Shown here: in pieces, positions 16,278-52,746 of the stretch
Layout: every line of letters starts with the position of its first letter
Position numbering within the stretch: position 1 is the first letter of the stretch
Assembly (NCBI GenBank): GCA_902492105.1
Contig: CABUKD010000002.1
Coordinates: 9,155 to 73,154 of the forward strand
Length of the DNA stretch: 64,000 bases
From: an uncultured Clostridium sp.
GTDB taxonomy: Bacteria; Bacillota; Clostridia; TANB77; CAG-508
Reading direction: 5' to 3'
Notes under the pieces: model-generated
Told to the model about the DNA's origin: nothing
The model's input: the letters and a program-made list of their open reading frames with translations, nothing else
Database searches by the model: none
Made by a program: the position numbers and the translations under genes

Positions 16278-18473
16278 CTATATTCCCAATGTGTATGGAT
16301 CATCTGATGTTCCACTTCCCCCTGTTACTTTGATTCCAGGTTTTAGTGTAAAAACAGGTCTTAGCCCATGAGTAAAGCTATTTGAGCTAAAAGTTCCCGT
16401 ATCATAGATATAACATAAATTTTCATTTGTTAAATTACCAGTAGTACCCATATAGTATATATCAAAATAAACATCTTCCTTGTGTGAAGTTACATGACGA
16501 GAAGCTAACCAATAATTCTGATCGGAAGCTGCTATTCCTAATTTTGTCATCTGTTCGCGATCTGTTAAGTAGTTATTATCTCCTTTTAAAAATGAACCAC
16601 TATATTTTTGTGAAAATGATATATATTGGTATTCAGTAGCTTGGGAATTTTTATTATTTGGTACACTTCCGACACTCCTTACATCATTTGCATAAGTTGT
16701 ATTTAAGTATGTTTCTGCTTTTTTATTTAGTATATAAATTATTGCGGTATTATATGAATTCATTGCTGTATTAAAATAAGTTTCATCTTTATATTGATCA
16801 CTGCCTGTTCCATTTCCCAACTCTACATCTTCAACTGTATCTTTTGTAATAATTTGCACTCCATAACTTGAATAATTTGAATTTTCTGGTCCATATAATA
16901 CAATACATTTTCTAGTTACTCCTGTTCCGTCTACATATTGCACATAGTTTCCTTCTTTTAAAGTATTTTCTACTAAGAGTGGTTTTTTTATAGTTACTGT
17001 ACATGTTGCTTGCATGTTGCTTCCATCATTTGCTTTTACTGTTATTGTTGCTGTTCCTTCTGTTTTGGCCGTTACTAAGCCTGTACTACTTACTGTGGCT
17101 ATATTTGTATTATTACTACTCCAACTTACTGCTTTGTTACTTGCATTGTCTGGTGTTATGCTTGCTGTTAATTGCTGTGTTTGTCCTTCTTCTAAAGTTA
17201 AACTTGTTGGACTTACTGTTATTCCCGTTACTAATTGTGTTACTGTTACCCCTTGTGATATACTTTCTAATTTATTTCCTACTTTATCTGCTGTTAATAC
17301 ATGTAAATAATAGGTTCCTACTGTACTTGCACTTAATGTTATTTTTTCTCCATCACTACTAAAACTATTTGTATAATTACTTGCTTCTGTTCCTATTGGG
17401 TTTGAATTTGTGTTATATTCCCATTTACAATTTCCAATATCTACTCCAGTTTCATTATCTATATGCGTTACCGTTGCTATGATACTTCCTGTTGTATTCG
17501 TAGTATTTCCACTTAATTCTATTTGTGCATTTTGTGGATTTATTTGGTCTAAAATATCAATACTAGTATATCCACTTTGATTGATTCCATCTGTTATTAG
17601 TGCATATACAGTTTGACCATGATTTAGTCCTGTAATTGGTCCTTTATAATCTAGCCATTGTCCTTCTGTTCCTCCTACTTGATATTGAATAGTTACTCCT
17701 GTTTCTGTTGTTTCTAATTCTATTGTTGCTGTTCCATTACTCCATACTGTTTCTCCTTTTTGGTTAACTGCTCCTGTTAATTCACCTGTTGTTACATTGA
17801 TTACTTTTTCAGCTGTTCCGTTTTCATCTTCTACTACTACTTTTATATTATACACTTTTTGTTGTTCTAAGCCTGTAAAATCTGCTGTTAAGTCTTTTAC
17901 TCCTTCTTTGGATGCTACATAACTACTATCTGGTTCTCCATCTTTTTTATAATAATAGCTTAAACTTACTTCTCCTTCTGATCTTGTAATTTCTACTTCT
18001 ATATGAATACTATTACTTCCACTAGTTGAAGTAATTTCTCCTATTTTTGGTGGCAAACTATCTCCTTTTACCACATCTCCTATACTAACATTTCCATCTG
18101 GACTCACAATAATTTCTACAATATATCCTTCATTTGTTGTTAATTCGTATCTATCATTTTCTCCATCTTTTTCTGGTCCTGCTACATCTTCATCTGGATT
18201 ATCGATTATATCTGCATCTACCATTTTGTCCCATAAATCATCTACTGTTACAGTTGGATCTACTGCTCTTCCTATACTCCAATCTGCTATTACATTATTG
18301 ATTCTATCTTTCAATGCCCCTATTTCATGTTCTATTTTTGCTTGATTTGCTATGTCAAAAATGCCTCCATTGCTAAATAGTAGATTGATGGTTATTCCTG
18401 CTAATATGAGTAATACTACTATAGTTACTACTAGTGCTATTAAAGTGATACCTTTCTCATTTTTTTCTTTCAT
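16278..18473 (-). CDS. Surface protein with prepilin-like N-terminus, FN3-like and Big_2 domains (paralog of 13666..15831)
   Basis: The N-terminus is MKEKNEKG|ITLIALVVTIVVLLILAGITI. The Big_2 segment is VTGITVSPTSLTLEEGQTQQL... The C-terminus LRPVFTLKPGIKVTGGSGTSDDPYTLG is almost identical to its paralog's. Confidence 0.85.
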   Translation of the reverse strand: MKEKNEKGITLIALVVTIVVLLILAGITINLLFSNGGIFDIANQAKIEHEIGALKDRINNVIADWSIGRAVDPTVTVDDLWDKMVDADIIDNPDEDVAGPEKDGENDRYELTTNEGYIVEIIVSPDGNVSIGDVVKGDSLPPKIGEITSTSGSNSIHIEVEITRSEGEVSLSYYYKKDGEPDSSYVASKEGVKDLTADFTGLEQQKVYNIKVVVEDENGTAEKVINVTTGELTGAVNQKGETVWSNGTATIELETTETGVTIQYQVGGTEGQWLDYKGPITGLNHGQTVYALITDGINQSGYTSIDILDQINPQNAQIELSGNTTNTTGSIIATVTHIDNETGVDIGNCKWEYNTNSNPIGTEASNYTNSFSSDGEKITLSASTVGTYYLHVLTADKVGNKLESISQGVTVTQLVTGITVSPTSLTLEEGQTQQLTASITPDNASNKAVSWSSNNTNIATVSSTGLVTAKTEGTATITVKANDGSNMQATCTVTIKKPLLVENTLKEGNYVQYVDGTGVTRKCIVLYGPENSNYSSYGVQIITKDTVEDVELGNGTGSDQYKDETYFNTAMNSYNTAIIYILNKKAETYLNTTYANDVRSVGSVPNNKNSQATEYQYISFSQKYSGSFLKGDNNYLTDREQMTKLGIAASDQNYWLASRHVTSHKEDVYFDIYYMGTTGNLTNENLCYIYDTGTFSSNSFTHGLRPVFTLKPGIKVTGGSGTSDDPYTLGI

Positions 18474-18547: not shown

Positions 18548-18699
18548 AATTGCTAAGATATATTTTCGCATTTTTCATAATTGAGGACCATTTGTTTAAT
18601 AGATATTTTGATTTTTGTATTCGTTTTAAAGAAAGTGTGTTGTTATTCACAAGCCTATGGGACGAGCTTATGAAAAAAAGAAAATATATCTTAGCAATT
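18548..18699 (-). repeat. Family-1 hairpin-bounded element, copy B (inverted relative to A and C; inserted in the leader of 16278..18473)
   Basis: A 20-bp perfect terminal inverted repeat pairs aattgctaagatatattttc (18548-18567) with gaaaatatatcttagcaatt (18680-18699). The interior contains the reverse complements of TCGTCCCATAGGCTTGTGAAT and ACAAATGGTCCTCAA. The paralogous leader of 13666..15831 lacks this element. Confidence 0.75.
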
Positions 18700-18749
18700 A
18701 GGTTATTAAAGCATTTTTATTTCATTATACTATTCTTTTATTTCTATGT

Positions 18750-18982
18750 AAAAAAAAAAGAAGATGAATTATGTATTTTTTACATAACTCATCTTTTATG
18801 TTTTTATTCTTAATATATAATTTTGGTACAACAAATAAAACTAAAATTTTTTTAGTTGTTGGTTTAAATGTTAACTCTCTCTCTCTCTCTCTCTCTTAGT
18901 GTTTCAATGTTTTTCAATTTTATCCTCTTTTCTTTTACTTTTTTACTATTTTTAGTATAATATAACTTTATTTTATTTGCAA
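18750..18982 (-). promoter_or_regulatory. Leader module copy 2: promoter, (AG)11, intrinsic terminator
   Basis: On the minus strand the promoter is TTGCAA (18982-18977), N17, TATACT (18959-18954). The terminator arms are 18795-18781 and 18775-18761, followed by a run of nine U residues. The leader ORF here has only a TTG start (18917-18915). Confidence 0.65.
18875..18896. repeat. (CT)11 / (AG)11 microsatellite
   Basis: Counted directly: 11 CT units between gttaa and tagtg. Confidence 0.97.
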
Positions 18983-34374: not shown

Positions 34375-36186
34375 TTAGCCAACAACTTTCTTAAGTTCTG
34401 TTTGGTCAATATAATTATCTCTTTGTGCTTCTCTTAGCTTTTTCATAAATGGTAAATAGTAAGAATCATCATAGTCTACATAGTCATCTTTGGTAATACC
34501 GTAATGGTTACTAATAATAGAATTTTGGTCTTTAAAGCTTTGGTCTATGGCATTTGCAATTTCTTCATCAAATAAAATAGAAATATAATACATTGCTTTT
34601 GCATGGTCATTTAATTTATCCATAGCACAAGCATAATAGTATACTGCTTTTACCATGATTTTTTCTAGTGGATTGGATAGCATTTGTTCTGTTAAAAAGT
34701 TTAAATTTTCTAATGTTTTAGCGGCTTTGTAATATTCTTTATTTGCAATATAGCAAATAGCTAAGAAATATTTTGCTCCCATTCCCATACTTTCACAAGG
34801 AAGGATAGAAGTATCTTTTAAACTAATAAGAAGAGATAATTTTTCATATCCTACTGTATTTACAATTGTTTCCATCATTTTAGTTACTTGTGCTATATTT
34901 TGTGAATTGATATTTTCTAAATCCATTAATAGTTTTTGCATCGTAATAAAAAGAGAAAAATAAGTTGCATTAGGATCAAAAGTAGCTTCACTCATTCCAG
35001 GTACTGCAATACTGTAAGATGGAAAACCTAATATGGATACATCTCTTACTAGAATATCTTTTCCTTCTTTTAAAATGGTTTGAATAAGCTGTGTTAAAAT
35101 CGTTTTATTATCTTCATTTGATACATCTTTTATTGGAGTAAAGCTATATTGTGGTTTTTCTCCTATTACTTCATAAGGAGCTGCTGATAAATCGGTAAAT
35201 AAAAATTCTACTAGATTTTTATGAGTGTTTTGTTCTTCTCCTGCATAAAAATCAAATAAGCATCTTTGTGCATATTCGTAAATATCTCTTCCCTGGGATG
35301 CTTCTGTAAAACATCTTTCCATAGCAATTCCATAGTCTGGATGTGCTCCTAATTTGAATCCGAACTTTCCTGTATTTTTTTCTATCATATATAATCCTGC
35401 TACTGGATATTTTCCGCCTAAAGAACAATCTACTAGTCTATACCAATAGGTTGGATTTTGTTTTAACATATCTACCATTTTTTGTACTTTTGGAAATTTT
35501 GCTATATATTCTTCTGGTATTTCTGGTAAGGTAATTTTCTTTTTTAAAATTTGAAAACCTACATATCTTTCTAAAATCTCCGATAAGCCTTCTATTAAAG
35601 CTTCTTCTGGGGAGTTTCCTGCACACATTCCATTGGTGTCATAAAGATAACTAAATAGGCGGTCCGGAACATAGGTAATTTGATTGTGTTTTACACTATA
35701 ATAAGGAAGGCATGCAAATTTTTCTTTATCCACTAAAGTGGATTTTTCATTCAAAACTTCTTGAATGTAGGCTAATTGTTCTTCTTTACTACTATTTTGC
35801 TTTCCATTTGCTTCTAAAATATGTTCAAAAAAACTGTTAGGTGTTTTCATCAATTCTTCTGCATTCATATATTTTTCATCTGGAGAGTTGCTAAATGGAA
35901 TTTCTTTGGTTGGTTTTTCCATGCGAAAACGGAACATTCCATTTTGAAATCTTTCAAAAAATTCGGCATAAGCACTTGCCATAGCAAATTCTTTGGTCAT
36001 TCCTTTTCCATTTTGACCAATATCGGTTCCTTTAATACGTAAACGTAAAGAATAGGTGCCTACACTACTTGGTTTTCTCCAATCTTCTTCTACTTGAATG
36101 TCTGCTTTTTTTAATAGTTCTTTTAATTTTTTTACTGTTTCTTCTGGGGTTACTTCTTTATATCTTCTCTCTTGTAATTTACTCAT
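34375..36186 (-). CDS. YcaO-domain protein with C-terminal TPR-like region (orphan)
   Basis: GKGMTKEFAMASAYAEFFERFQN and NGMCAGNSPEEALIEGLSEILERYV are canonical YcaO ATP/Mg-binding motifs. The C-terminal ~170 aa is helical-repeat-like. The likely start is ATG 36186, with GAGGA 8 nt upstream; the track start is a GTG at 36210. Confidence 0.85.
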   Translation of the reverse strand: MSKLQERRYKEVTPEETVKKLKELLKKADIQVEEDWRKPSSVGTYSLRLRIKGTDIGQNGKGMTKEFAMASAYAEFFERFQNGMFRFRMEKPTKEIPFSNSPDEKYMNAEELMKTPNSFFEHILEANGKQNSSKEEQLAYIQEVLNEKSTLVDKEKFACLPYYSVKHNQITYVPDRLFSYLYDTNGMCAGNSPEEALIEGLSEILERYVGFQILKKKITLPEIPEEYIAKFPKVQKMVDMLKQNPTYWYRLVDCSLGGKYPVAGLYMIEKNTGKFGFKLGAHPDYGIAMERCFTEASQGRDIYEYAQRCLFDFYAGEEQNTHKNLVEFLFTDLSAAPYEVIGEKPQYSFTPIKDVSNEDNKTILTQLIQTILKEGKDILVRDVSILGFPSYSIAVPGMSEATFDPNATYFSLFITMQKLLMDLENINSQNIAQVTKMMETIVNTVGYEKLSLLISLKDTSILPCESMGMGAKYFLAICYIANKEYYKAAKTLENLNFLTEQMLSNPLEKIMVKAVYYYACAMDKLNDHAKAMYYISILFDEEIANAIDQSFKDQNSIISNHYGITKDDYVDYDDSYYLPFMKKLREAQRDNYIDQTELKKVVG

Positions 36187-36381
36187 TTGCTTATTCCTCA
36201 CTTTCTCCACTTTTATTACAAATTTATTAAATAGACAAAAATTTTCTATCTAATATAAAATATCATTTTTCGACAAAATTCACTAGAGTATTTTACAAAA
36301 AATGCTTTTTTTATTATAAACTATTTTTGTTAAATTTTTATATCGTTTTTTTATAGTTTTCTAAATTTAAATTTTTATTTT

Positions 36382-36540
36382 ATAGCTTTCCAGTATATAT
36401 TTTCTTTTTTTCATTGGTTCGTCCCATAGGCTTGTGAATTACAGCACACTTTCTCTTGTATAAATTTCAATGTTCTGACTATGTACTAAACAAATGGTCC
36501 TCAACAACTCAAAATGCGAAAATATATACCGGAAAGCTAT
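36382..36540 (+). repeat. Family-1 hairpin-bounded element, copy A
   Basis: The terminal stem pairs atagctttccagtatatattttc (36382-36404) with gaaaatatataccggaaagctat (36518-36540) with 1 mismatch. The interior has TCGTCCCATAGGCTTGTGAAT, CACACTTTCT and ACAAATGGTCCTCAA. The inner helix P2 is disrupted in this copy. Confidence 0.7.
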
Positions 36541-36718: not shown

Positions 36719-39700
36719 TTAGAATCTTCCCTTATTGAGTACCGTTTTCTTAATAACTACAATACTAATTCCTAACATTGCTGCGATTAACACTGCTAAA
36801 CCAATATATAGGTAAGTTGCACCAAATGGTGGTAAAATTACTACTCTTTCTGCCATACTACTGTCTGGTTCTGTTGGTGCATCTTTAGGGTTTTGGTTAC
36901 CTTGTACAGAGTATGCCATTCTTCTACCTACATCATTTGAAATTTTTACAATTTCTCCAATGTTATCATAGGTTAAATCGTCATCCTCATTTTGAGAAGT
37001 AATTAATTGTGTTAAAATTAATTGAACCTCATCTTGTGTTTCTGCACTATCTTTTGTACTTTCTGTTAATGGGATTAATTTTTCATTTAATGCTTCGGTA
37101 GTAATAATTGTGTTATAATCTTTTAATACTCCTTGTACTTCTGTATTTACATAGTTATTATTTTGAATTTCTTGTTCTGTAATAGTACTCCAATCCCATG
37201 CGTCTTGGTTACTTTGTGTTCTAAATTGTAAGTTATTTGCTACATAATCCATTACAACATCTGCTGAAGTTCTTACAATAGTTTCTGGATTATTTACTTT
37301 ACCAATGTAATAGAATTGTGTTTCGTTATAGTCTACTTCACCCATGTTAGTTACTGTTACATCATAAGTAATTTGAATAGTTGCACCATGCATTAATTCT
37401 TGGTCCATTGTAGGTTGAATTAATCCTTTTTCTTTTGTTACCAATGTATGAATTCTATCTAGTACTTTATTTCTAAACTCGTTGTAATCTTGTACTCTGT
37501 TTTCTTGATCCTTATTCGTATCTATGTCTTTATATCCTGCATAATCACTGTAAACATTTTGTCCACCATTGCGGTTTCCTTCTTGTTTATCTATATCAGT
37601 ATTAGTTTTCATTTCATTAATGTTATATGGTGTTTTTGGTTGCCATGTTAAGTTATTTACAGTTTGATTTGCATCAAATAATACAGTTTGGTTAGCTAAA
37701 GTAATTCTTACATTGTGAACTTGTTTATTTAATTCTAATCCTGCTTTTGGTCTTTCTTCTAATCCAAAGTCTACGTCTTGTAAGTAGTAATTTTGGTTGG
37801 TATTATCTTTATAGTCAATAACATTTCTATCACCTTCTGGACGGTAACCATCGTTGTTATAAGTATTATTACCAGTTGCAGCTTGTCTGTTATATTCAAA
37901 TTCCATACGGATGGCACCTGTTTCTGCTACCATTTGGGTACTACTATTTGGTGTAGTATTTTGGTTTAATGTATTTGCTTTATCATAGGTTACACCAGAA
38001 TAATTGTTACTACTGTAATTATTTACATTTTCTCTGTTTTGAGAAATTTGTTCACTACTGTAAATATCTTTTGCATCTGATACATTTATTTTGTTTCCTT
38101 TTTCATCTACAAATTCATCTGATTTAAAGATATTATATCCAAAGGTTGCTGTATCATTTTGTTTTTCATAATCTGTATAGCCGTTGTATCCAAAGTGATC
38201 TTTTCCGCTGACATCTGTTCTACCATTTTGGTCAATTGCTGTATTATTTATATGGTTGTATTGATAACTGGTTGATTTATAGTCTTGTCCATTATAGTAA
38301 GCATTACAGTCATAGGTTTGTCCATTATAGGTGTAGCTTTCGTCTCCACCATAGATAAATCTTACTACATAATCTCCTGGAATATATCCTTCAAAGTAAT
38401 AATATCCTTTTTCGTCTGTTACTGTTGCTGCATCTATCCAAGTATTAGTGTCTTTATTCCATACTTTTGCAATATTTTCTTGTGTTACACCATCTATTAC
38501 TTCATGTAATTCTACTCGAACACCGGAGATGGTTACTTCATTATCTTCTCTTACACCGTTGCCCACTAAGGCATCTGTAGTACTATTTCCGTTCATGGTA
38601 GGCGCTTGATAGTTTCTCTTATCTTCCCATACAGTACCATCTAGTTGTCTTACTAAAGAAGCATCTACATATACATTAATTCCTCTTGCTCTATCTGCAT
38701 CATCTTCGAAGTTTTGCTCGTAACGTGTAGTTCCTGCTGTATTATTTAAAGCATCTCTATCAAAGTTACCTGGGTTAGAGTCTTGGTCAATTAATCCTGC
38801 TACATCATTAGAATTTTTTCTAATGCCGTTTGGTAATTCAGTGCCATCTGCATAGTATGTCATATAACCATTAATTTCTGCTATGTTTTGTTTTCCTGGT
38901 CCGGTATTATCGTTTTCTATTACTAAATTTGAACCAACACCATTAATTTTGAAAGTTAAGTATAAGTATGCTGTTTCTCCAGTTTCTAGTTTATGGTCAC
39001 TTAAACCATTTACATATAAAGTTTTATACTCACTGCCTAAACTAAATTGTGTATTTTCTGCATACATACCTGTTGTAGTATTATATCGATTACCAAGTGT
39101 TACATCTCTATACTTTTCTTGTCCTGTTGTATCTTTGCTACCTTCATGCATAATATCGTAATATTCTTGATCTGTTACTTGTACATCTCTATTACTTACA
39201 TGATCTCCTCTGTACATTGCCCAAGATAAGTTTGGTTCAAAGGTGTAATCTGAGTCATAGTAATCTACTACTTCCTGAATTTGAGCTAAAATACTTTGAG
39301 ATTGGTTTCTAATGGTAATTTTATAGGTTATATAAGCTTCTAATTGGTTTGTTCCTGTATAATTTCTTTCTGATGGATAAATTTCTCTTGAATAGGTTTC
39401 TCCATAATAGCTTGCATAGTTTGGTCCTATAATTCTTGCTTGAATATCCCAGAATTTGTTTTCTAATTCTAATTGATAATTCAAGTATTCTACACTATCT
39501 CTACCATATTCTTTTTCTAGTCTTTTTAATTCTGCTCTTTCTTCATCTGTAATAATTTCTCTTTCGTTATATTCATAAATTTCGGTTTTGCCATTGATTT
39601 TTAAGGTTGCTTTAAATACATCTTTCTTTAGAGATACATCATATTCTTGTCTTCTCCATAGCCCTTGATTAATCATTAATTGTCCAGCATAAACATTTTT

Positions 39701-42193
39701 ATATACGACATTAATGTCACTTTGCATATAGTTATGGTAAATATAATGTGGATTTCCAATAACATTATGCCAAATTCTGTATTGTAACATGTTTCTGTTA
39801 CCAGTTGCTTTCATTACAGTGTCTGCATAAGTACTTGCTTTATCATTATAAGTTCCGCGTTCATAGCTATTATTTGGATATAAATTTCCACTTGCTACAA
39901 ATGTTGTAAATTGATTATACACAGGATATAAATCATATTCTTTTTCGCGGTCTGCATCTTGATTTTTGGTATAAGATTGTATTTTACAATCTTCTATAAA
40001 TTGTAGTTTTTTCCAAGTTTCATCATTATTTCTTGCAATATCTTCATAAATTTGTGTTTTTAAATTAGTTGGATATTTTCTATTTCTTTTAATATAATCT
40101 CTAATTTTTTCACTAATAATTCCTTCTGTTAATTCTGGATGGTTAGTTTCTGCAGTATTAATTACATATCCATTTTCTACTTTGTAGTAACTGTCTATTA
40201 ATTGTTCTCTAGGATTATATTCATATTCACCTTGTGGATTTAAGCTAATTCCTGATAAAGTATAAATAGAAAATGTTTCGTTATAATAGTCTCCGTCTAC
40301 TCTTTCTAAAGCTCCTGATCTTAAAGAATTATCGGAAATATAGTTATTTGGTGATGAACCAATTTCTGCAAAAGACTCATCATAAGCGTCTCTTTCATCT
40401 GTAAGTTCGGTACCTTTTGATGTTTCTTGCCAATCTCTATTTCTGGTAGCTCCATCATAATCTCCTTTGTCTACCATTTCTTTGACATCATCTGCTTTAG
40501 TATCGCTTAAGTATTCTGTTGCTGTATAGGTTTGACCATTATAGGTAAATTGTACATAATATTTTTTCTCTCTACTTACTCCTCTAAATTCGTAATATCC
40601 ATTTTCATCTGTTAAAGTAGGGTTAATTCTTCTACCATAATCATCTAAGTCATTAATTTCTCCACTACTTGCATTTGGGTTTTCTTCTTGTAAAGTAGTT
40701 AAATGTGCAAGTTTTCCTGTTTCTGCATCATATAAAGCAACTTCGATATTTTTTAAGTTAATATCATTTTCATCTTTTCTACCATTTGCAATATCTTCTT
40801 TGGTTTGTGGAATGTCTTCAAAAACAAATCCACCAACTTTCATTCTTGCAGACATATATGGGTTTCCGAAAATTTCAATTTCAAGGCTTTCTTGAATTAG
40901 TCTTCTGTCTGCTCTTACAATATATACACCATTTTGCATGTGGTCAATTACTACTTTTGAAGTTCTTCTACAGTCAGTACATGGTACTGGGAATCCCATT
41001 ACTGTCTTCATATGAGTTGTATGTGTATGTGAATATTCACTTACTCTTTTACTTTTACCTTCACGAATACAAATTTCTGTTGTACATTCTAAATATTGGA
41101 AGTCAACATGTAATTTTAGAGAACCAACATCTTCTCCTAAGTAATCTATTTCTACATAGAATTCTTCTCCTGGGTTTGGATAATATTTTGTCCAATCCCA
41201 ATAATCTACACAGTTAGGGTTGTAAATTTGGTAACCTTCATCATAATTGCTAAAGAATCTTGGACTACTTAAATCATAATTAACTGGATAATTTTGATTA
41301 GTTGTTTGTGGTTGTCTGTTTGGCATTACAAAGTTGACAATATCAATTCTATTTCCGTTATTATCTATTAAGTACATATCGGAAATTCCACCAAATGCTT
41401 TTCCTTGAGAATATTTTCCATTCACATAATTTAATTTAAAAGGTCCTATTGTATGAAGCTGAGTTTCTTGGTTGGTATTCCATTTTACTTCATTAGAATT
41501 TGTCAAGTTTTGAGGCTTCATTCCCTTTTCACCTTCCATGATTTTTTCATAGAAGTCTTGATATTCTAAAGATTGATTTCTTAGATTTTCTCCTTCTGCT
41601 CTTGCAGAACCTCTACCTGGATCACCTTTTTGAGATAATGGTGACATCCAAATAGCTTGTTGTTTAGAATCTGCCCAAGTTTCGTAACTTTCTGAACCAG
41701 ATATTGAGTCTTGACCTGGTTGTGGATAGAAAGAAGTTATATAAGCTACATCATATAGGTTATCTACCCTTTTTCCGTAAAGACGAGTACTACTTTCTGT
41801 ATAATGTTCATTTTGGCATTCATAATAGGTAGTACTATATAATCCATATCCTGGAGGTGATCCCGCACAAGCAGGGCAAGATTTACCTGTTCTTCTTCCT
41901 TCATATTGTTGAATGTCTTCTGGAGTATATTCACTAATTCTTACTGGAGAACCTGGCTCCACACAATAAATATCATCATGTCCACTAGTAGATATTGGCC
42001 TCCATAAATCTGATCCTACTTTTCTTTCTTCTTTAATTAAAATTCTTTGACATCCCGAAAAAGCCAGTGTTGAATTACCATTTTTCTCTAGATTAGCCAT
42101 TGGTAAATTAATGGCGATGGCTGTTGCAATTGCTGCAGTAATACCTGTGGTGCCTATTGTAATTCCTAATACCTTTAGTATTTTCTTTATCAT
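36719..42193 (-). CDS. Giant surface adhesin, module 2 gene B (paralog of 23017..28206) with thioester-domain signature
   Basis: IYCVEPG (Cys77, nt 41963-41965) and SKQQAIW (Gln178, nt 41660-41662) give the thioester signature. SdrD-B-like segments include GGFVFEDIPQ...TDENGYYEFRGV. The C-terminus is VVILPPFG, then a TM helix, then KKTVLNKGRF. Confidence 0.85.
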   Translation of the reverse strand: MIKKILKVLGITIGTTGITAAIATAIAINLPMANLEKNGNSTLAFSGCQRILIKEERKVGSDLWRPISTSGHDDIYCVEPGSPVRISEYTPEDIQQYEGRRTGKSCPACAGSPPGYGLYSTTYYECQNEHYTESSTRLYGKRVDNLYDVAYITSFYPQPGQDSISGSESYETWADSKQQAIWMSPLSQKGDPGRGSARAEGENLRNQSLEYQDFYEKIMEGEKGMKPQNLTNSNEVKWNTNQETQLHTIGPFKLNYVNGKYSQGKAFGGISDMYLIDNNGNRIDIVNFVMPNRQPQTTNQNYPVNYDLSSPRFFSNYDEGYQIYNPNCVDYWDWTKYYPNPGEEFYVEIDYLGEDVGSLKLHVDFQYLECTTEICIREGKSKRVSEYSHTHTTHMKTVMGFPVPCTDCRRTSKVVIDHMQNGVYIVRADRRLIQESLEIEIFGNPYMSARMKVGGFVFEDIPQTKEDIANGRKDENDINLKNIEVALYDAETGKLAHLTTLQEENPNASSGEINDLDDYGRRINPTLTDENGYYEFRGVSREKKYYVQFTYNGQTYTATEYLSDTKADDVKEMVDKGDYDGATRNRDWQETSKGTELTDERDAYDESFAEIGSSPNNYISDNSLRSGALERVDGDYYNETFSIYTLSGISLNPQGEYEYNPREQLIDSYYKVENGYVINTAETNHPELTEGIISEKIRDYIKRNRKYPTNLKTQIYEDIARNNDETWKKLQFIEDCKIQSYTKNQDADREKEYDLYPVYNQFTTFVASGNLYPNNSYERGTYNDKASTYADTVMKATGNRNMLQYRIWHNVIGNPHYIYHNYMQSDINVVYKNVYAGQLMINQGLWRRQEYDVSLKKDVFKATLKINGKTEIYEYNEREIITDEERAELKRLEKEYGRDSVEYLNYQLELENKFWDIQARIIGPNYASYYGETYSREIYPSERNYTGTNQLEAYITYKITIRNQSQSILAQIQEVVDYYDSDYTFEPNLSWAMYRGDHVSNRDVQVTDQEYYDIMHEGSKDTTGQEKYRDVTLGNRYNTTTGMYAENTQFSLGSEYKTLYVNGLSDHKLETGETAYLYLTFKINGVGSNLVIENDNTGPGKQNIAEINGYMTYYADGTELPNGIRKNSNDVAGLIDQDSNPGNFDRDALNNTAGTTRYEQNFEDDADRARGINVYVDASLVRQLDGTVWEDKRNYQAPTMNGNSTTDALVGNGVREDNEVTISGVRVELHEVIDGVTQENIAKVWNKDTNTWIDAATVTDEKGYYYFEGYIPGDYVVRFIYGGDESYTYNGQTYDCNAYYNGQDYKSTSYQYNHINNTAIDQNGRTDVSGKDHFGYNGYTDYEKQNDTATFGYNIFKSDEFVDEKGNKINVSDAKDIYSSEQISQNRENVNNYSSNNYSGVTYDKANTLNQNTTPNSSTQMVAETGAIRMEFEYNRQAATGNNTYNNDGYRPEGDRNVIDYKDNTNQNYYLQDVDFGLEERPKAGLELNKQVHNVRITLANQTVLFDANQTVNNLTWQPKTPYNINEMKTNTDIDKQEGNRNGGQNVYSDYAGYKDIDTNKDQENRVQDYNEFRNKVLDRIHTLVTKEKGLIQPTMDQELMHGATIQITYDVTVTNMGEVDYNETQFYYIGKVNNPETIVRTSADVVMDYVANNLQFRTQSNQDAWDWSTITEQEIQNNNYVNTEVQGVLKDYNTIITTEALNEKLIPLTESTKDSAETQDEVQLILTQLITSQNEDDDLTYDNIGEIVKISNDVGRRMAYSVQGNQNPKDAPTEPDSSMAERVVILPPFGATYLYIGLAVLIAAMLGISIVVIKKTVLNKGRF

Positions 42194-42215
42194 CTGTTAT
42201 TTGCCCTCCTTTCTT

Positions 42216-45200
42216 CTATTGTTTCTTTTTAAAAACTTTTTTCTGGATGAATATAATTCCTGTAATTAGCATTGCTAAAATTACAATTCCTAAAATAGAG
42301 TACATCACAATCTTACCTGTTACAACAGAAAGTACAATATCTGCTTTAGACATATCGTCTTCTTGTTCTGCTTGATTTGCTTCTGTTGAGTCTATATCTG
42401 TTAATCCTTGTTCATTATATGTTTCATAAATTTCAGCATTGTTGTTTACAATATTTCCTATGTTTTCGTCTGTAATAGTTAAGCTTAATACTAATTCTAC
42501 TTCTTTGCTTTCTCCTGGATTAATTTTGGTATTTTCTAGGCTAGTATTAAACACAGTTCTATTATTATCGGAAATATACCAGTCTTGATTAATTTCGGAA
42601 TTAAAACTTGTTCCTTCTGGTAAATAATCAATAATTTTCTTTACATATCCAGGAACTTGTCCTTCGTTAGTAACTACTATTTTATATTTAATAATAATGT
42701 TACTTTTATTAACATTTTGTGCTAAAATTTCTACTCTTTCTAGTTGAGAATCTCTATAAGTATAAGTATGGGTTCCAATAGTTGGAGTTGTTAAAGTAAT
42801 TTCTGTTACATATTTATCTAACCTCATATCAAATTTTTCTGCTGTGTATAATCCAATGTCAATATTTCTTTGATTTTGGTTGGTAACTCTTATGGTGTCT
42901 GTTACACCAGCATTTCTTTGTTCTCCATTTAATATGACTTTCATACTAATAGCATCATTATTAAAATTATCATTTACATCTTGTTTTTGATATTCTGTAA
43001 TCGTGTATTTTCCAGAGTCATATAAAAATACTACTAAATACTCGTCTGAAATTAAATTACTAAATTCATAATAGCCATTTTCATTGGTTGTAGTTGTTTT
43101 ATTTTGTTTTGTGTCTACATCTTGTACAATTTGACTAGTTTGTTTGTCTAATAGCAATACTTCTATTCCAGAAAGTAAAGTTTCATTTTCTTCTCTTTGT
43201 CCGTTTTGATTGCTATCTAGCCATGCAGTACCTGTTATTTTGTAACGATTGTTTCCTGGTGTTTCTGGTTCTTGCTCATCCGAGTCATGTACATCATTAT
43301 TATAATGTAAGTACATAGTAACATCATTTAATTTTACTTGTTCAATGGCATCTGCATACATAATTGCACTATTTACAATTTGCTTTTCTGTTTCTCCACT
43401 TTGAAGTCTTCCTTTTACTTTAAATTTTACGTTAATAGTAGTGTTTGGAGCGATACTTTCCATTTTAAATGTAAGAATATTATCTTTTACTGTAGTAGCT
43501 GAAGCTCCATTATACATTCCTTCTGGTATTTCTACAATTTCTACTGTAGTATCTACATATTGAATTTCTTGTGGTAATGTATCTTCTAATACAAATCCAG
43601 TAACTCTTCCTTCTCCTTTTGTACTAATCGTAAACTGATATTCAAATTCTTCTCCTTCATCAACATCTAATTTACTTGGTTCTATTTGTTTTCCCGAAAT
43701 ACTAGAAGTTGCTACTAAATATACAAATCTTTCATTAGAATAATAGGTTTCATTCTCATTTGCAGTTGCTGTTATTCTAGTAGAAAAACTATCTACTGTT
43801 TTTTCTCCTAATTCAAACTGTACTACTAAAATTTTATCTTCTCCATAAGCCACTATATTTCCCATATGAGCAACTACTTGGTTTTCTTGTGTTTCTATTT
43901 GTGCTTCTATTTTATTATTGTTGATATCCATAACATAAGCTTCCTGTATAGTTGCATTTTTAGGAATTGGTACATTGGCAATAATATTGTTGATATCTGC
44001 ATGCCCCAAATTGCTAAAATAAATTTTATAAGTAATAACATCTCCTTGTGTATAAATTAATTGTTCTACACTAGAAGATCTATTTAGAATAGATAATCCT
44101 CCATTTGCAAGTTGCATATGATATTGATTAGAAGTTACATTGGTATTCAACTTATCTGCAGTTACAGTTACTTGTTGGTCAAAAGAAAGTGTTTCTTCTT
44201 CATTAGCTGATTTAACATACATTTCATAATCAATTGTTTCTGTTTCTCCTGCTTTTACTGTTGGAATAGTAAGTGTTAATTCTTCTCCTTCTACAGGAGT
44301 GTAGTTATTATTGTATTCTTCATATTCTACAAATTGTAGGTTAGAGTATTTTGATACTCCATCTTCTTGTTGAATTTCTTCCATAGGTAATTTTGCAGTT
44401 ACTTTTACATTTTGTGCATCTGCTTTTCCTTTATTTGTAACTTCTACATAATAACGAATATATTGTCCTGGTCTTACTACTGTATTTTCTGGGATACTTG
44501 CGGAAAGTTTTACTTCTAATTCTGGTCCTTCTCCTGTAGTTAAACCAATTACTCCTGCTTTTTTGGTTTCTCCTATTGTTGCCCCTGGTGCCTTATTATC
44601 ATAATAAACTTTGTAGTTGGCATAACTACTTTGATTAAAGCTTAAGTTTGCAGGTAAGCTTACTTTATAAGAGAATGACATTTGTGTATTTGCTGTTACT
44701 TCTCCTGAAATAACAATTAAGTAACTTTTTACTTTGCTTAAATCACTTGGATTTTCTGTCCATCCATTATTACTATCTATTAAGTCTCTAGTAGCTTCGC
44801 CATTTTCACTATAATAAATTTTTATATTACCACTATCAATTCCGCTTGTTGTAATTGTACTTGTCATTGGCATATCAAAGGTGCTTCCCAATTCTTCTGT
44901 TTCATCAATTGCTTTATTGCCTGTAAAAGGCACTCTTCCTAATACCATTACATTATCAATGGCATTGGTATAGTTATTTGTCATAATTCCTTCTACAGTA
45001 ACTTCTCTTTGGCTACCATAAGTTTCAACAGTAGCTGTTTGTGTTTCATCTCCTATGTTCATAAGTTCGGAGCCTTTTGCATCATATCCAGTCATACTAT
45101 TTGCTGTTACTACCCCTGTTGGTGCTACTAAGTTAATTGTTGTGCTAGCCATTCCCTTTTTTTGTGTGCTAGCTCTTGCTTTTTGCTGATATGTTTTTTC

Positions 45201-47339
45201 ATAAAGATCTGTGTTCTCATTTGTATAATATAGGTTAATGTTTTCTGTTGTACTTGGCGCTAATTGGTTTAAGGTAAGATCTGTTTTAATAATTAGATTT
45301 GCACCTTTTGTAATAACATTATTTTGTTCATCACTTTGTTCTTGATAATTTGTATACTTTGTTTGTGTTCCTTGTAAAGTAACAATAATTACTTTTTTAC
45401 CATTTCTATTTTCTACTTTTGCTTCTTTTACTTTTAATTCATCTTCTAGTAAAAGGTTGATATCTTTTACTTCTACTTTTTCAATTTGACTTGGTAATTC
45501 TATTTCAAAAGTAGGATTTTTAAATAATGCATTATAAGTACTAGAAGTATCTAATACGATTCTAATATCTACATCCTTGTTTACTATCATAGTAGATAAA
45601 TTTTGTTTATCTTCTTCTATGCTAATTTCTGCTTTGCTTACAGGTTCTTGCATTGCAATTTCTGCTTGAGCTGTTTTAGTTTCATTATTTGTTTTTGCAG
45701 TTACTCCTAGCGTAATTTTTGAAAAAGATTTCATTTTGTCTAAAGAATAGCTTTGTTCCGTTACTAATGCTTTTTCTACTCCAATTTCTAATTTTCCTTC
45801 CATAATTGGAGTAGAAGTTTTAATAACAATTTGATTTACTTTTGCTTCTTCTATGTTTAACACATAATTTCCTTGTGCATCTAGTGTAGTATCTTTAGTA
45901 ATTTCTCCCAATAGAGTTCCCTCTGAAGTTAATACTTGAATTTTACCTTCTTCTCCTAATATTTTTTGGAAAATTGTTTGCGCTATTTTTATTTGTTTGG
46001 TAATTGCATTTTTTCCTATTTCGTACTCATTTTCACCTGCTATATAATTTTGTTTATCTTCTTTAAATTGTATTTCTTTATTAATTCCTGCATCATAAAC
46101 GAAAGTAGCATAATTTAAAGTAAAAGTAGTTTCTTCTTTTTCTGTAGCTGTTTTTTCATAATTTGCATAAAGATATCCTTTACTTATTTTTTCACTTGCT
46201 ACTAAATCTATATCTGTTAAACTTCCTTTGAGATCTTCTATTGTATATGGTAAGCTACCATTAAAAGTAATATTTGTTTCTTCTCCATTATATAGGTTAA
46301 TATTTGCAACTACTTGAATATCCCCAGTAATAGCATTTTCGTTTCTCATTCCTGCTTCTTTTTGCTCTTTCGTTAACATAGTTTGTTTTGCTTTTTCTAA
46401 TTGTGCTACTGTAGAATCATAAGCTTCTTTTCCTACAAATACATAATTAATAAAATATTCATCATTTGCTTTTTCCCAGGCAATTTTTCCTTGCTCATTT
46501 GCTTGGTTTTGCGTTTGAATCGTAACTTTTCCTGTTTCTTTATTGTATTGATAATTTTTAGTTGTAAATGCATTGCCATTATCTACTCCATTGGTTCCTT
46601 TTGTAGAATTTGCAATTACAGTTACTCTTTCTGGATTTGCCCCATTAATTTGTGGTACACTAATTTCTAAATTAGTAGTTTGTATTGGTAAAACATAGTC
46701 TTTTACTCCACTATTAATTTTAGCTTGTACGAAAACACCATATTCTTCTCCTTGATGATAAGGAATATATTTTGTAATTTCTCCTGTTATTTTAGCACTT
46801 GCTTCTTTTTTCCAAGTAATTTGATTACTAATTTCTTTTTTTATTTCTACTTCTTTTCCATTTGCATTTACATAAGTTCCTTTTAATACTGCTTTAGAAA
46901 TTTTACTAAAGTTGTCTTGTGTAATTTGGTTTTGTTCTGTCATACGAATTGGAACTTCTATTGTTATTTCTTGGTTACTATTAATTTGTTTTAGTTGAAG
47001 TTTATTTTCTTCTACTTTTTGAATAGATTCTCCGCTAATTTTATTTGTTTCTACTTGATAATTGGCATCAACAAATTCGACTATTCCATTCTTTAAATAG
47101 CCGTTTTCTTTTACATGTAAATAAAGATATAATTTTGCTTCTTCTTTTTCAGAAAAAGTTTTATTATGTACTTCTCCTTCTAAATAACTATTAAATTCTA
47201 CATTTGCATGATTTGTTTGTTTGTTTTGCTTTTCTAATTCAGGGGCTGCTGCTATTACTTGTGCTCCTAAATTTAGTAAATTAGTGCCAACCAGAATGGT
47301 TGTCATCATAACTGCCATTATCTTTTGTCTTATTTTCAT
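42216..47339 (-). CDS. Giant surface protein, module 2 gene A (paralog of 28288..33288)
   Basis: It has a signal peptide (...LGAQVIAAAP), DUF11-like repeats, and the SdrD-B-like segment TGTAWLDSNQNGQRE...NENGYYEFSNLISDEYLV. The C-terminus is ADIVLSVVTGK, then a TM helix, then QKKVFKKKQ. Confidence 0.85.
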   Translation of the reverse strand: MKIRQKIMAVMMTTILVGTNLLNLGAQVIAAAPELEKQNKQTNHANVEFNSYLEGEVHNKTFSEKEEAKLYLYLHVKENGYLKNGIVEFVDANYQVETNKISGESIQKVEENKLQLKQINSNQEITIEVPIRMTEQNQITQDNFSKISKAVLKGTYVNANGKEVEIKKEISNQITWKKEASAKITGEITKYIPYHQGEEYGVFVQAKINSGVKDYVLPIQTTNLEISVPQINGANPERVTVIANSTKGTNGVDNGNAFTTKNYQYNKETGKVTIQTQNQANEQGKIAWEKANDEYFINYVFVGKEAYDSTVAQLEKAKQTMLTKEQKEAGMRNENAITGDIQVVANINLYNGEETNITFNGSLPYTIEDLKGSLTDIDLVASEKISKGYLYANYEKTATEKEETTFTLNYATFVYDAGINKEIQFKEDKQNYIAGENEYEIGKNAITKQIKIAQTIFQKILGEEGKIQVLTSEGTLLGEITKDTTLDAQGNYVLNIEEAKVNQIVIKTSTPIMEGKLEIGVEKALVTEQSYSLDKMKSFSKITLGVTAKTNNETKTAQAEIAMQEPVSKAEISIEEDKQNLSTMIVNKDVDIRIVLDTSSTYNALFKNPTFEIELPSQIEKVEVKDINLLLEDELKVKEAKVENRNGKKVIIVTLQGTQTKYTNYQEQSDEQNNVITKGANLIIKTDLTLNQLAPSTTENINLYYTNENTDLYEKTYQQKARASTQKKGMASTTINLVAPTGVVTANSMTGYDAKGSELMNIGDETQTATVETYGSQREVTVEGIMTNNYTNAIDNVMVLGRVPFTGNKAIDETEELGSTFDMPMTSTITTSGIDSGNIKIYYSENGEATRDLIDSNNGWTENPSDLSKVKSYLIVISGEVTANTQMSFSYKVSLPANLSFNQSSYANYKVYYDNKAPGATIGETKKAGVIGLTTGEGPELEVKLSASIPENTVVRPGQYIRYYVEVTNKGKADAQNVKVTAKLPMEEIQQEDGVSKYSNLQFVEYEEYNNNYTPVEGEELTLTIPTVKAGETETIDYEMYVKSANEEETLSFDQQVTVTADKLNTNVTSNQYHMQLANGGLSILNRSSSVEQLIYTQGDVITYKIYFSNLGHADINNIIANVPIPKNATIQEAYVMDINNNKIEAQIETQENQVVAHMGNIVAYGEDKILVVQFELGEKTVDSFSTRITATANENETYYSNERFVYLVATSSISGKQIEPSKLDVDEGEEFEYQFTISTKGEGRVTGFVLEDTLPQEIQYVDTTVEIVEIPEGMYNGASATTVKDNILTFKMESIAPNTTINVKFKVKGRLQSGETEKQIVNSAIMYADAIEQVKLNDVTMYLHYNNDVHDSDEQEPETPGNNRYKITGTAWLDSNQNGQREENETLLSGIEVLLLDKQTSQIVQDVDTKQNKTTTTNENGYYEFSNLISDEYLVVFLYDSGKYTITEYQKQDVNDNFNNDAISMKVILNGEQRNAGVTDTIRVTNQNQRNIDIGLYTAEKFDMRLDKYVTEITLTTPTIGTHTYTYRDSQLERVEILAQNVNKSNIIIKYKIVVTNEGQVPGYVKKIIDYLPEGTSFNSEINQDWYISDNNRTVFNTSLENTKINPGESKEVELVLSLTITDENIGNIVNNNAEIYETYNEQGLTDIDSTEANQAEQEDDMSKADIVLSVVTGKIVMYSILGIVILAMLITGIIFIQKKVFKKKQ

Positions 47340-47416: not shown

Positions 47417-47640
47417 TGGTAAGTTCTTTCCAAAAATGTCGAAAAATGGAAAATCCGTTACGGAAGTTGTTTTTTTGGGCGAAATATTAAATTTATATTA
47501 CAAAATAGGGCTTTTTTGTCATTTTTCTGTTAGTTTTGTTTTTAGTCTACATAATATTTTTATTTGTAATTATTTTTCATCGAATTTTATAATATTTAGT
47601 TCTTATTTTTCCTTATCTATTTACTTTTTTCTTATTTAAA

Positions 47641-47793
47641 CGGTAGAATACTATATTTTCTTTTTTGCATTGGTTCGTCCCATAGGCTTGTGAATTACGA
47701 CACACTTTCTTTTATATAAAATAGTAAGTTCTAAATGTGTACTGGACAAATGGTCCTCAACAATGCAAAATGCAAAAATATAGTATTCTACCG
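47641..47793 (+). repeat. Family-1 hairpin-bounded element, copy C
   Basis: A 19-bp perfect terminal stem pairs cggtagaatactatatttt (47641-47659) with aaaatatagtattctaccg (47775-47793). The 10-bp inner helix is ttttgcattg / caatgcaaaa. The conserved interior blocks are the same as in copies A and B. TTTTT follows on the plus strand. Confidence 0.75.
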
Positions 47794-47909
47794 TTTTTAG
47801 ATATAATTAATAATTAATATAAAATTTCTTTTCTTGTTTTAGTCACATTTTTTTCAAAAGTAGAATATATATAATTTAGAATTGTATTAAAGTATTGAGG
47901 TGAAAAAAT

Positions 47910-48080
47910 ATGGCAGAACAAAATAATATGGACATGATGAAATTAATGTCTATGCTTTCTAAAATGGATAAAACTCAGTTAGAGCAAGGTTTAGCAAAAG
48001 TAAATCAAATGCTTAGTTCAGAAGATAAAGAAAAATTAATGAATACTTTAAAACAAAATATGAATAACAACAAGCAATAA
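47910..48080 (+). CDS. Small hypothetical protein (56 aa)
   Basis: ATG lies 6 nt after GAGGTGA. The product is MAEQNNMDMMKLMSMLSKMDKTQLEQGLAKVNQMLSSEDKEKLMNTLKQNMNNNKQ. It falls below the ORF-track length cutoff. Its N-terminus is similar in style to the next gene's. Confidence 0.5.
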   Translation: MAEQNNMDMMKLMSMLSKMDKTQLEQGLAKVNQMLSSEDKEKLMNTLKQNMNNNKQ

Positions 48081-49027: not shown

Positions 49028-50413
49028 CTATAAATTACTTGGTTTAGGTGTTGTTGTATTTGTACCACAATTTTCAAACATATAATTTGTGTTTTCTACA
49101 TTTGTTAAATCCCAATTATCTCCTACATAAATAGTAGTTAAATTTGTACAACTAGCAAACATAGCCTCCATTTCTTGCATACTACTTGTATCCAAACTAC
49201 TCAAATCCAAATTTGTTAAGCTAGAACAACTCAAGAACATCCAACCCGTACTTATAACATTACTTGTATCAAAACCGCTTAAATCTAAATTTGTTAGATT
49301 TGTGCAACCATTGAACATATGTTGCATATCTGTTGTTTTACTTGTATCAAAATTGCTTAAATCTAAGCTTGTTAAACCACTACAATTTTGAAACATAAAA
49401 TACATAACTACAACATTACTTGTATCAAAACCACTTAAATTCAAACTTGTTAAGCTAGAACAATTTGCAAACATAGCTGCCATATTTTCAACATTATTTG
49501 TATTAAAACTACTTAAATTCAAACTTGTTAAATTTGTGCAACTATTAAATATATTTTGCATATCTACAACATTGCTTGTATCAAAACCACTTAAATTCAA
49601 ACTTGTTAAGCTACTACAAGCATAAAACATTGATGCCATATCTTCTACTTTACCTGTATTAAAGTTTTCTAAGCCTAAAATCTCAGTTAAATTACCACAA
49701 TGTGCAAACATTGCTGCCATGTTTGTTACATTACTTGTATTAAAACTACTTAGGTCTAAAGTTGCTAAACTGCTACATGTATCAAACATACTCAACATGC
49801 TTTTAACTTCACTTGTATCTATCTTCTCAATATTTTCAAATTCAGTTAAGTTTATGCAACTGTCAAACCAACTAGACATTGATATTGGGACTATTTCATC
49901 TACTATACTTGCTTTTGTTATTAGTGATGCTTCGTTAAACCATGGGGTATCACTCATTCTGTTGTTAGCTGCATTTTCGTCTGTCCAACTCTTATATTCT
50001 TGTCCTTTTATATTTCCATACTGTTTTACTATTGTTTTTCCTTCTATAGGTTCACTTTGTGTTCCAAATGTTAATGTTCCATCATCATATAAAAATACAT
50101 ATATATCGGTTGCTCTTGAATTCTTTCCTAATTCTTCATTTAATTCATTTAATAAACTATTTAAACTTTCTTGTTCATTTGCTACTGCATTTTCCCATGT
50201 GTTTTTTGCTTCTTGGGCTGTTCTGATAATTCCATTTTCTCCTAATAACATATTAATTGTAATACCTGCTAAAATAAGTAGTATAATAATTGTTACTACT
50301 AGTGCTATTAATGTAATTCCTTTTTCTGCATATTTTTTTAAATTATTTTTTTCTTTTTTGCATAGCACAGTTCCTTGCTTTCCATTTTTTACTTTTTCTT
50401 GTGTTCCTTGCAT
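49028..50413 (-). CDS. Prepilin-like N-terminus fused to DUF285/BspA-type leucine-rich repeats
   Basis: The N-terminus ...KKYAEKG|ITLIALVVTIIILLILAGITINMLLGENGII has a 31-aa leader and Ala at +5. About 10 repeats follow the pattern L(D/N)LS.F(D/N)TSNV..M..MF..C..LT. The RBS is AGGAGGA. Confidence 0.85.
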   Translation of the reverse strand: MQGTQEKVKNGKQGTVLCKKEKNNLKKYAEKGITLIALVVTIIILLILAGITINMLLGENGIIRTAQEAKNTWENAVANEQESLNSLLNELNEELGKNSRATDIYVFLYDDGTLTFGTQSEPIEGKTIVKQYGNIKGQEYKSWTDENAANNRMSDTPWFNEASLITKASIVDEIVPISMSSWFDSCINLTEFENIEKIDTSEVKSMLSMFDTCSSLATLDLSSFNTSNVTNMAAMFAHCGNLTEILGLENFNTGKVEDMASMFYACSSLTSLNLSGFDTSNVVDMQNIFNSCTNLTSLNLSSFNTNNVENMAAMFANCSSLTSLNLSGFDTSNVVVMYFMFQNCSGLTSLDLSNFDTSKTTDMQHMFNGCTNLTNLDLSGFDTSNVISTGWMFLSCSSLTNLDLSSLDTSSMQEMEAMFASCTNLTTIYVGDNWDLTNVENTNYMFENCGTNTTTPKPSNL

Positions 50414-50624
50414 TCTTTATTCCTCCTACTTACTTCTTTATATAATTTTAATATTTAAACTAATAAAAATTGCAGTATTACCTTTATTTTTTCCATCTTT
50501 TTACTTTTTATTCTTATTCTATTAGTTTTGTATTCTTTTCTTTATTTATGTTCCTTGTTAATTGCTTTATTATTTAAAAGTTTGTTCTTAGTTTATTTCA
50601 TTATACTATTCTTTTATTTCTATG

Positions 50625-50867
50625 TAAAGAAAAAGAAGATGAATTATGTATTTTTTACATAATCCATCTTTTAAATTTTCATACTTGATATATAATCTGG
50701 GTACAACAAATAAAACTAAATTTACTTTAGTTGTTGGCTTAAATTGTAACTCTCTCTCTCTCTCTCTCTCTTACTATTTCAGTACTTTCAAGCATTTTAG
50801 CTATTTCTCCTTCGCTTTTTCTTCTTTTTTCTGTTCACATTATACCAATATCTCTTTTACTTTGCAA
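50625..50867 (-). promoter_or_regulatory. Leader module copy 3: promoter, leader ORF with (AG)11, intrinsic terminator
   Basis: On the minus strand the promoter is TTGCAA (50867-50862), N17, TATAAT (50844-50839). GGAG (50810-50807) lies 11 nt before ATG 50795-50793. The terminator arms are 50670-50656 and 50650-50636, followed by CUUUUUCUUU. Confidence 0.7.
50750..50771. repeat. (CT)11 / (AG)11 microsatellite
   Basis: Counted directly: 11 CT units between ttgtaa and tactat. Confidence 0.97.
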
Positions 50868-51078
50868 GTACTTTTTTCTCTTTTATTTTTCTTCTGTTTT
50901 TTCTCTTTTTATCTTCATTTTTTGTTGATATTTATGAATCCTCTAAACATGGTCAACAGCCTTATTTTCGTTCTGATTTATTAAAGCTTCATCTCTATGG
51001 CTATATCTCTGCTATTCGTTCTTCTCGTAAACTTTCTGCTGCTTGTCATTTTAAAAATTGTTTTTATTTTTTCTTCTA

Positions 51079-52371: not shown

Positions 52372-52474
52372 TTTTTATTCCTCCTATTCGCTCTTTTATA
52401 TAATTTTAATATTTAAATTAATTCTTATTTTATTTCATTATCCTATTTTTTTATTTCTTCATAAACAAAAATTT

Positions 52475-52703
52475 AAGATGAATTATGTATTTTTTTACAT
52501 AACCCATCTTTTACATTTTGATATTTTATATATAATTTTGCTACAACAAATAAAACTAAATTTACTTTAGTTGTTGGTTTAAATTGTAACTCTCTCTCTC
52601 TCTCTCTCTCTTACTGTTTCAGGCATTTTGTGCATTATTCTACTTTCTCCTTTGCTTTTTTATTTTCTATATTCATTATAACAATATTTTTTTCAGTTTT
52701 CAA
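52475..52703 (-). promoter_or_regulatory. Leader module copy 4: promoter, leader ORF with (AG)11, hairpin
   Basis: On the minus strand the promoter is TTGAAA (52703-52698), N17, TATAAT (52680-52675). GGAG (52650-52647) lies 11 nt before ATG 52635-52633. The hairpin arms are 52510-52496 and 52489-52475. The U tract (AAAUUUUUG) is weaker than in the other copies. Confidence 0.65.
52590..52611. repeat. (CT)11 / (AG)11 microsatellite
   Basis: Counted directly: 11 CT units between ttgtaa and tactg. Confidence 0.97.
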
Positions 52704-52746
52704 TCATTTTTTCTTCTTTTATTTTTTATTTTGATAAAATAAAAAT

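Follow-up and report, generated by a model that had tools for sequence, protein, structure and literature searches.

The closest described system to the elements analysed here is the set of RecV-dependent C. difficile switches (cwpV/Cdi1, flgB/Cdi4, Cdi2, Cdi5 and others), with which we compared them by layout. C. difficile has several invertible switches and a recombinase, RecV, encoded away from the sites, and its near-identical Cdi2 and Cdi5 carry the same arms (PMC5903667). The inverted repeats of these switches are typically 10-20 nt long, and invertases encoded in trans are common (PMC5903667). Some of the switches act after transcription initiation, within the leader (PMC5903667, PMC5386303 and PMC7446863). 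Gut invertons share inverted-repeat motifs and often have a strongly biased orientation (PMC11892184). Our literature search found no mention of invertons in Intestinibacter.

We studied a stretch of 64,000 nucleotides (hereafter, the window), which has 29% G+C and contains spoIIE and mreBCD-minC genes. According to the label that one source gives to a neighbouring protein, the organism was taken as an uncultured Intestinibacter sp. (Peptostreptococcaceae). Three elements, named A, B and C, lie in the window. Like the C. difficile switches, they are short intergenic or 5′-leader segments with inverted repeats of comparable length, placed at several loci beside surface or signalling genes, and under the Intestinibacter assignment both organisms belong to the same bacterial family. 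Unlike the C. difficile switches, A, B and C have a conserved core and an inner arm motif in common while their outer arms are locus-specific, and no RecV-type gene was present among the window ORFs scanned. In cwpV and flgB, the OFF orientation forms a terminator (intrinsic in cwpV, Rho-dependent in flgB), whereas no intrinsic terminator was found in A, B or C. A promoter outside the segment, as in cwpV and flgB, has an 11/12 candidate only at B, about 25 nt upstream; A and C have weak matches.

The elements also resemble the invertons of Bacteroides and other gut bacteria (Mpi-type invertase, PhaseFinder surveys), which form motif-sharing families upstream of surface-structure operons and have their recombinase in trans. 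Those invertons carry the promoter inside the segment, whereas A, B and C have no evident conserved internal promoter and the candidate of B lies outside; Bacteroides further differs in phylum and in arm motif. In the Rci/sfx shufflon, each site has one conserved and one non-conserved arm, which limits the pairs that can recombine. The division of the A, B and C arms into a possibly recognised part and a free part would be shufflon-like by analogy. Shufflons invert coding segments among many sites, unlike A, B and C, each of which has the layout of a simple two-site switch.

Layout of the three paralogous elements

A preliminary description of the window had reported three copies of about 155 bp that share exact sequence blocks, are closed by outer stems differing between copies yet complementary within each, and lie beside surface-protein or YcaO genes. 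We recovered all three copies (Table 1), and all are intergenic beside such genes. Among the blocks, TCGTCCCATAGGCTTGTGAAT and ACAAATGGTCCTCAA each have exactly three matches in the window, against shuffled expectations of 0.00 and 0.15, respectively, and CACACTTTCT was found in A, B and C. The outer stems are inverted-repeat arms of 20-23 bp, namely ATAGCTTTCC(A/G)GTATATATTTTC in A (23 bp, one mismatch), AATTGCTAAGATATATTTTC in B (20 bp, perfect) and AAACGGTAGAATACTATATTTT(C) in C (22-23 bp, perfect). The only arm part common to the three copies is the inner (A)TATATTTTC of 9-10 bp; each locus has its own outer 10-13 bp. The anatomy of an inverton, an intergenic core of about 115 bp between inverted repeats of 20-23 bp, is present at 3 of 3 loci.

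Table 1. Positions of the elements, their parts and the adjacent features in the window
Feature	Position	Strand	Remarks
Element A	36382..36540	+	Arms 36382-36404 and 36518-36540, 23 bp, 1 mismatch
Element B	18548..18699	-	Arms 18548-18567 and 18680-18699, 20 bp, perfect
Element C	47638..47796	+	Left arm, ~115-bp invertible core and right arm; subject of the preliminary description
C left inverted-repeat arm, AAACGGTAGAATACTATATTTT	47638..47659	.	100% complementary to 47775-47796
C right inverted-repeat arm, AAAATATAGTATTCTACCGTTT	47775..47796	.	Pairs with left arm
21-nt block, TCGTCCCATAGGCTTGTGAAT	47675..47695	+	Invariant across all copies and lineages seen
Conserved block, ACAAATGGTCCTCAA	47746..47760	+	Exactly three matches in the window
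Dyad TGTGA-N6-(N)CACA	47689-47704		Overlaps block TCGTCCCATAGGCTTGTGAAT; variation confined to 6-nt spacer
Gene of 731-aa protein, Big_2 domain	16278..18473	-	Pfam; candidate regulated gene of B
Near-consensus sigma-A-type promoter, TTTACA-17-TATAAT	18724..18752	-	11/12 consensus, ~25 nt upstream of B
YcaO-domain gene	34375..36210	-	Downstream of A
Genes of two giant surface proteins, 1707 and 1824 aa, with DUF11 and SdrD_B domains	36719..47339	-	Candidate regulated operon, downstream of C
Candidate outward promoter at C core right end, TCAACA-16-TATAGT	47757..47784	+	9/12 consensus match only; -10 overlaps arm
56-aa gene, first of conserved three-gene cluster	47910..48080	+	114 nt right of C; alternative target of C

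The central ~45 nt of the A, B and C cores are strongly diverged. On the forward strand of the core, C is only mildly in excess of G. The TGTGA-N6-CACA dyad may be a protein-binding site. Taken together, the conserved core, the constant inner arm, the locus-specific outer arm and the mirrored arm evolution described below make a somewhat unusual inverton architecture.

The preliminary description had also pointed to a second 10-bp helix with compensatory pairs between B and C. This helix reads TTTTTCATAA/TTATGAAAAA in B and TTTTGCATTG/CAATGCAAAA in C, and the three positions that differ are all compensated; it is broken in A, as had been noted. Only B and the C copy of the window lineage have this helix without mismatches; in C of two other lineages it has 2-3.

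Inversion of the B and C cores between related lineages

Using exact-protein look-ups of the neighbouring genes, we collected about 60 related contigs and grouped them into lineages W (that of the window), X, Y and Z. Across these lineages, the core of B and the core of C have each inverted between their arms. The B core of lineage Y matches window B at 96.7% as the reverse complement versus 55.7% in the colinear alignment. For C, the corresponding values are 91.3% versus 58.3% in lineage X, and 83.5% versus 57.5% in lineage Y. In all three comparisons, the 250-bp flanks on both sides are colinear at 82-94%. Inverted C was found in about 10 contigs of lineage X (L003, L020, L036-L041, L043 and L044) and in L045 and L047 of lineage Y, and inverted B in L004, L068 and L069 of lineage Y. 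Some of the X-lineage contigs have names that resemble the output of long-read assemblers, judging from the names. The contigs L027, L034, L043 and L063 break inside the element; since the repeated core accounts for such breaks, they were not counted as evidence. Asymmetric bases just inside the arms move with the core, indicating that the breakpoints fall within the arms.

Within a lineage, the orientation was constant, for C in about 20 W and about 10 X contigs, for B in 12 W contigs and for A in seven. The data therefore document at least two past inversions and not a continuing switching. No inverted A was found, as 7 of 7 other assemblies have the window orientation. The preliminary description had offered an invertible switch as one possibility, arguing from the opposite strand of one copy in the window. 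The possibility gained from the cores flipped between colinear flanks, but its argument did not stand: B simply faces another gene, and the evidence comes from orthologous loci. In the lineages compared, the core blocks remain unchanged whichever orientation the core takes. This persistence speaks for a function of both states and makes the blocks putative protein-binding sites.

The sole discordance within a lineage is L011, a 1.2-kb contig that may be an assembly chimera. In this contig (OIEG01018493.1, 1193 bp), the left arm and left core from the gene side of B are fused to the right core of Y-lineage C, followed by its flank and the 56-aa gene, and the crossover point lies within the invariant 21-nt block. 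The Y-lineage C right junction here has the orientation opposite to that in L045 and L047. L011 reflects either a deletion of the ~29-kb surface-protein cluster through B x C recombination in direct orientation or an assembly chimera.

Several contigs carry altered elements. Compared with L045, L046 (1080-1130) has lost C entirely, between TAG microhomologies, and keeps AAAGGTAG from the left arm. In lineage Z (L070-L073), upstream of a 718-aa gene, AATTGCT is joined to TATGAAAAATGCGAAAATATATCTTAGCAATT and most of B is deleted; this internal deletion spares the promoter and the gene. In L020, L036 and L045 (lineages X and Y), an extra partial core right end with its arm, e.g. CAATTGAAAGCGAAAAATAAATTATTCTACC, lies about 15 nt past the C right arm, and it is missing from the window lineage. 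By its sequence, this extra end is a putative duplicated or relic recombination site. The right arm of L039 is hybrid and degenerate.

Arm evolution, gene context and distribution

We compared the arms of orthologous C elements, which read AAACGGTAGAATACTATATTTTC in lineage W, as in X, and AAAAGGTAGCATAATATATTTTC in lineage Y. The two versions differ by three substitutions; the partner arm mirrors 3/3 of them, so that each version forms a perfect repeat of 23 bp. When eight distinct copies were aligned, 97% of the cells paired and both sides changed in 13 pairs, which gave 37 doubly changed cells versus one G-U cell. This covariation is confined to the two arm helices, and the inner predicted helices are invariant. 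Watson-Crick mirroring that passes through no wobble intermediates is the pattern expected from a constraint on double-stranded DNA rather than on an RNA helix. Partner recombination sites require identity between them, and template-switch repair corrects quasi-palindromes; the mirrored arms could arise in either way. Single-strand folds of the three copies gave z-scores of -6.75, -4.80 and -6.81 against shuffles, a trivial consequence of the inverted repeats. An intergenic hairpin whose "covariation" is perfect and free of G-U pairs may mark the DNA inverted repeats of a recombination site, which calls for caution in RNA calls.

B sits in the leader of the 731-aa gene, whose start codon follows the gene-proximal end of B by 75 nt. 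The N-terminus of the 731-aa protein looks like a prepilin-type leader in its sequence. The TTTACA-17-TATAAT promoter is part of a ~260-bp module that is common to three other surface-protein genes, none of which has the element, and this promoter near B is conserved in the four paralogous modules. Given the module promoter about 25 nt upstream and the three element-free modules, B appears to be an insertion in the 5′ leader.

The module constitutes a second repeat family, found upstream of four surface-protein genes (15832-16200, 18700-19050, 50414-50860 and 52372-52746, all on the minus strand). A promoter comes first, then an ORF of 15-18 codons and a hairpin, and after these an intrinsic terminator (18795-18761) and another promoter; the first promoter matches the consensus at 12/12 positions in the copy upstream of B. 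The small ORF, e.g. MLESTEIVRERERERVTI, contains an (AG)10-11 tract at 16083-16102, 18875-18896, 50750-50771 and 52590-52611. One copy is shorter by one AG unit, which alters the end of the small ORF, and the AG stretch in lineage Z (L070) is GTAAGAGAGTT, with three AG units counted by eye. The module may be an attenuator or a leader subject to slipped-strand phase variation. In L025 (ERZ918203 k127_33648), spoIIIAH takes the place of spoIIE ahead of the module, B and the 731-aa gene.

C is located between the 1707-aa gene (-) and the 56-aa gene (+). The end of C with the candidate promoter faces the small genes in lineage W and the surface-protein operon in lineages X and Y. The counterpart of this candidate is TCGACA-16-TATATT in lineage Y, and it is weak in A (TATATA) and in B (TCAATT...TATATC). 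To the right of C, two DUF285 genes (window 49028-52371) are missing from lineage X (L003:3945-3967), where minC directly follows the small-gene cluster.

A has the terminator of the 1824-aa gene on one side and the YcaO gene on the other. The distance from A is 172 nt to the YcaO ORF start at 36210, and 196 nt to the start at 36186 of the 603-aa version called in other assemblies. A YcaO homologue of 90% identity (L065) has a gene context different from that of A. At the loci of the 73% YcaO homologues (L066 and L067), the core block was not found with up to 4 mismatches allowed, and the listed upstream genes differ from those of A. A 45-bp tandem repeat of 2.1 copies (window 33644-33739) directly precedes a 160-aa ORF (33826-34308, +), for which PADLOC gave a weak AbiQ match (E = 2e-5) and Pfam none. 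The repeat and the ORF sit between the YcaO gene and a 1666-aa surface-protein gene and are missing from L065; their arrangement resembles that of a type III toxin-antitoxin locus or an abortive-infection locus.

Consensus scans found no promoter conserved in all three cores, and gave only weak matches at A and C; in such AT-rich sequence, promoter scans return many spurious matches. Terminator scans revealed no orientation-specific intrinsic terminator in either orientation of A, B or C. Pfam scans of the ~35 window ORFs identified no tyrosine or serine recombinase gene.

We also searched for the element beyond these contigs, scanning 596 Gb of genomes (one per species) and JGI metagenomes with core 18-19-mers. 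The genome collection yielded three real loci in two species-level uncultured Clostridia/Bacillota MAGs plus one chance match, and the JGI collection one real locus plus six chance matches. The two species-representative genomes with the element have B-like and C-like copies only. Within the reach of the core 18-19-mer scan, the element family is therefore confined to this species complex. Rfam 15 gave no match at the gathering threshold over the whole window, and at a relaxed E-value only chance plant-miRNA matches in the B and C regions (E = 0.4-0.8), consistent with the earlier remark that no known RNA family fits.

Two other groups of repeats occur in the window. A two-copy family (60093-60243 and 62270-62410) has arms of 32-42 bp (AAAGTATTAGRATTGTCTTTT...) that are 88-94% complementary and 67-77 nt apart; on these features it could be a further inverton or a MITE-like element. 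Long imperfect palindromes at 3907-4092, 5185-5376 and 6210-6308 have common GGGACGTTCC...GGCTGATTTTCAGCC motifs and are a REP- or MITE-like intergenic family unrelated to A, B and C.

Competing explanations and the proposed switch

We consider A, B and C to be probably paralogous invertible DNA switches (invertons) that are served by a recombinase in trans and regulate the adjacent surface-protein operons. The main rival, on account of the uniform orientation within lineages and the existence of deletion derivatives, is a quasi-palindromic cis element, forming a cruciform or a protein platform, which has no dedicated recombinase, inverts by rare accident and keeps its arms through template-switch correction rather than selection. 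We regard this as unlikely. It would agree with the orientation fixed in each lineage, with the ~35 window ORFs containing no recombinase gene, with the strictly Watson-Crick arm changes, and with the deletions in L046 and L070-L073, which end at or near the palindrome base as those of unstable palindromes would. Accidental inversion sits poorly, however, with independent inversions at two paralogous loci in close lineages and with the L011 junction, and the inner arm motif common to all loci resembles a recognition site. In addition, the core blocks are invariant after inversion, and the Y-lineage B core is 96.7% identical against 82-89% in its flanks, suggesting that both orientations are functional.

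The leading suggestion of the preliminary description had been a structured ncRNA under selection. Such an RNA would be an sRNA or a leader regulating in cis, with a closing stem kept by compensatory evolution. The suggestion did not hold up, as covariation occurs only in the arms, the core flips strand between lineages and Rfam has no match, and we now find it improbable. The strongly negative fold z-scores and the two covarying helices are what such an RNA would give, and B is certainly in a leader transcript provided that the upstream promoter is real. But the inner helices never vary, one G-U cell stands against 37 double changes, and the same locus presents opposite core strands in different lineages with its blocks still conserved. 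The orientations of A, B and C are also inconsistent relative to their neighbour genes, and no conserved pair of promoter and terminator was found. A MITE-like non-autonomous mobile element inserted at three sites seems very improbable to us, in line with the earlier judgement that this is not a young MITE. Three dispersed copies with a common core and the short terminal inverted repeat TATATTTTC would suit it, and so would L046, which precisely lacks C, the paralogous upstream modules that lack B, and the B outer arm if it comes from the local flank; yet microhomology deletions explain the "empty" sites equally well. No direct repeats that could be target-site duplications flank A, B or C, no transposase is nearby, and collecting further copies from the 596 Gb of genomes and the JGI metagenomes gave 2-3 copies per genome in this species complex only. 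The paralogous cores are moreover old, as their strongly diverged centres indicate. Membership of a MITE family was accordingly rejected: the ends have no direct repeats, only 9-10 bp of the arms are common, and there are 2-3 copies per genome. Most likely, the elements are of a kind well known from bacteria and do not represent a new RNA.

Recombination between the two arms flips the core. In the inverton reading, a site-specific recombinase encoded elsewhere in the genome would recognise the shared inner motif. Strand exchange would need identity between the partner arms, which would account for the arm co-evolution, and the locus-specific outer arms would disfavour recombination between different loci. 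Flipping of the core would then alter the expression of the adjacent surface-protein operon. Of these steps, the inversion is read directly from the orthologous loci; the recombinase and the regulatory output are proposed. B, with its promoter outside and the element in the 5′ leader, would act in the cwpV/flgB mode, while C perhaps carries an outward-facing promoter at one core end and A appears to be locked or to switch only rarely. The core blocks that stay invariant, among them the dyad, may bind the recombinase, an accessory factor or a regulator.

The inverton reading can be extended to an address-coded family of switches, a speculative proposal that we hold to be distinctly unlikely. 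One recombinase would read the inner motif, and the outer arm would serve as a locus key that has to match its partner, which would account for the perfectly mirrored substitutions; the key would also stop the three switches from recombining with one another and deleting or inverting the 29-kb surface-protein cluster. The outer arms might even arise from adjacent flank sequence, through inverted duplication or extension of the palindrome. Two observations hint at such an origin: AGCAATT, native to the paralogous leader, recurs as the B arm, and AAAGGTAG persists at the element-free C site of L046. In that case, new phase-variable loci could originate from a conserved invertible cassette.

If the inverton reading is confirmed, a widespread human-gut Intestinibacter phase-varies large surface proteins (the Big_2 protein and the DUF11/SdrD_B giants) through related switches, which would bear on colonisation, immune evasion and phage evasion. 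It would also extend the multi-switch system of the C. difficile type to a commensal relative.
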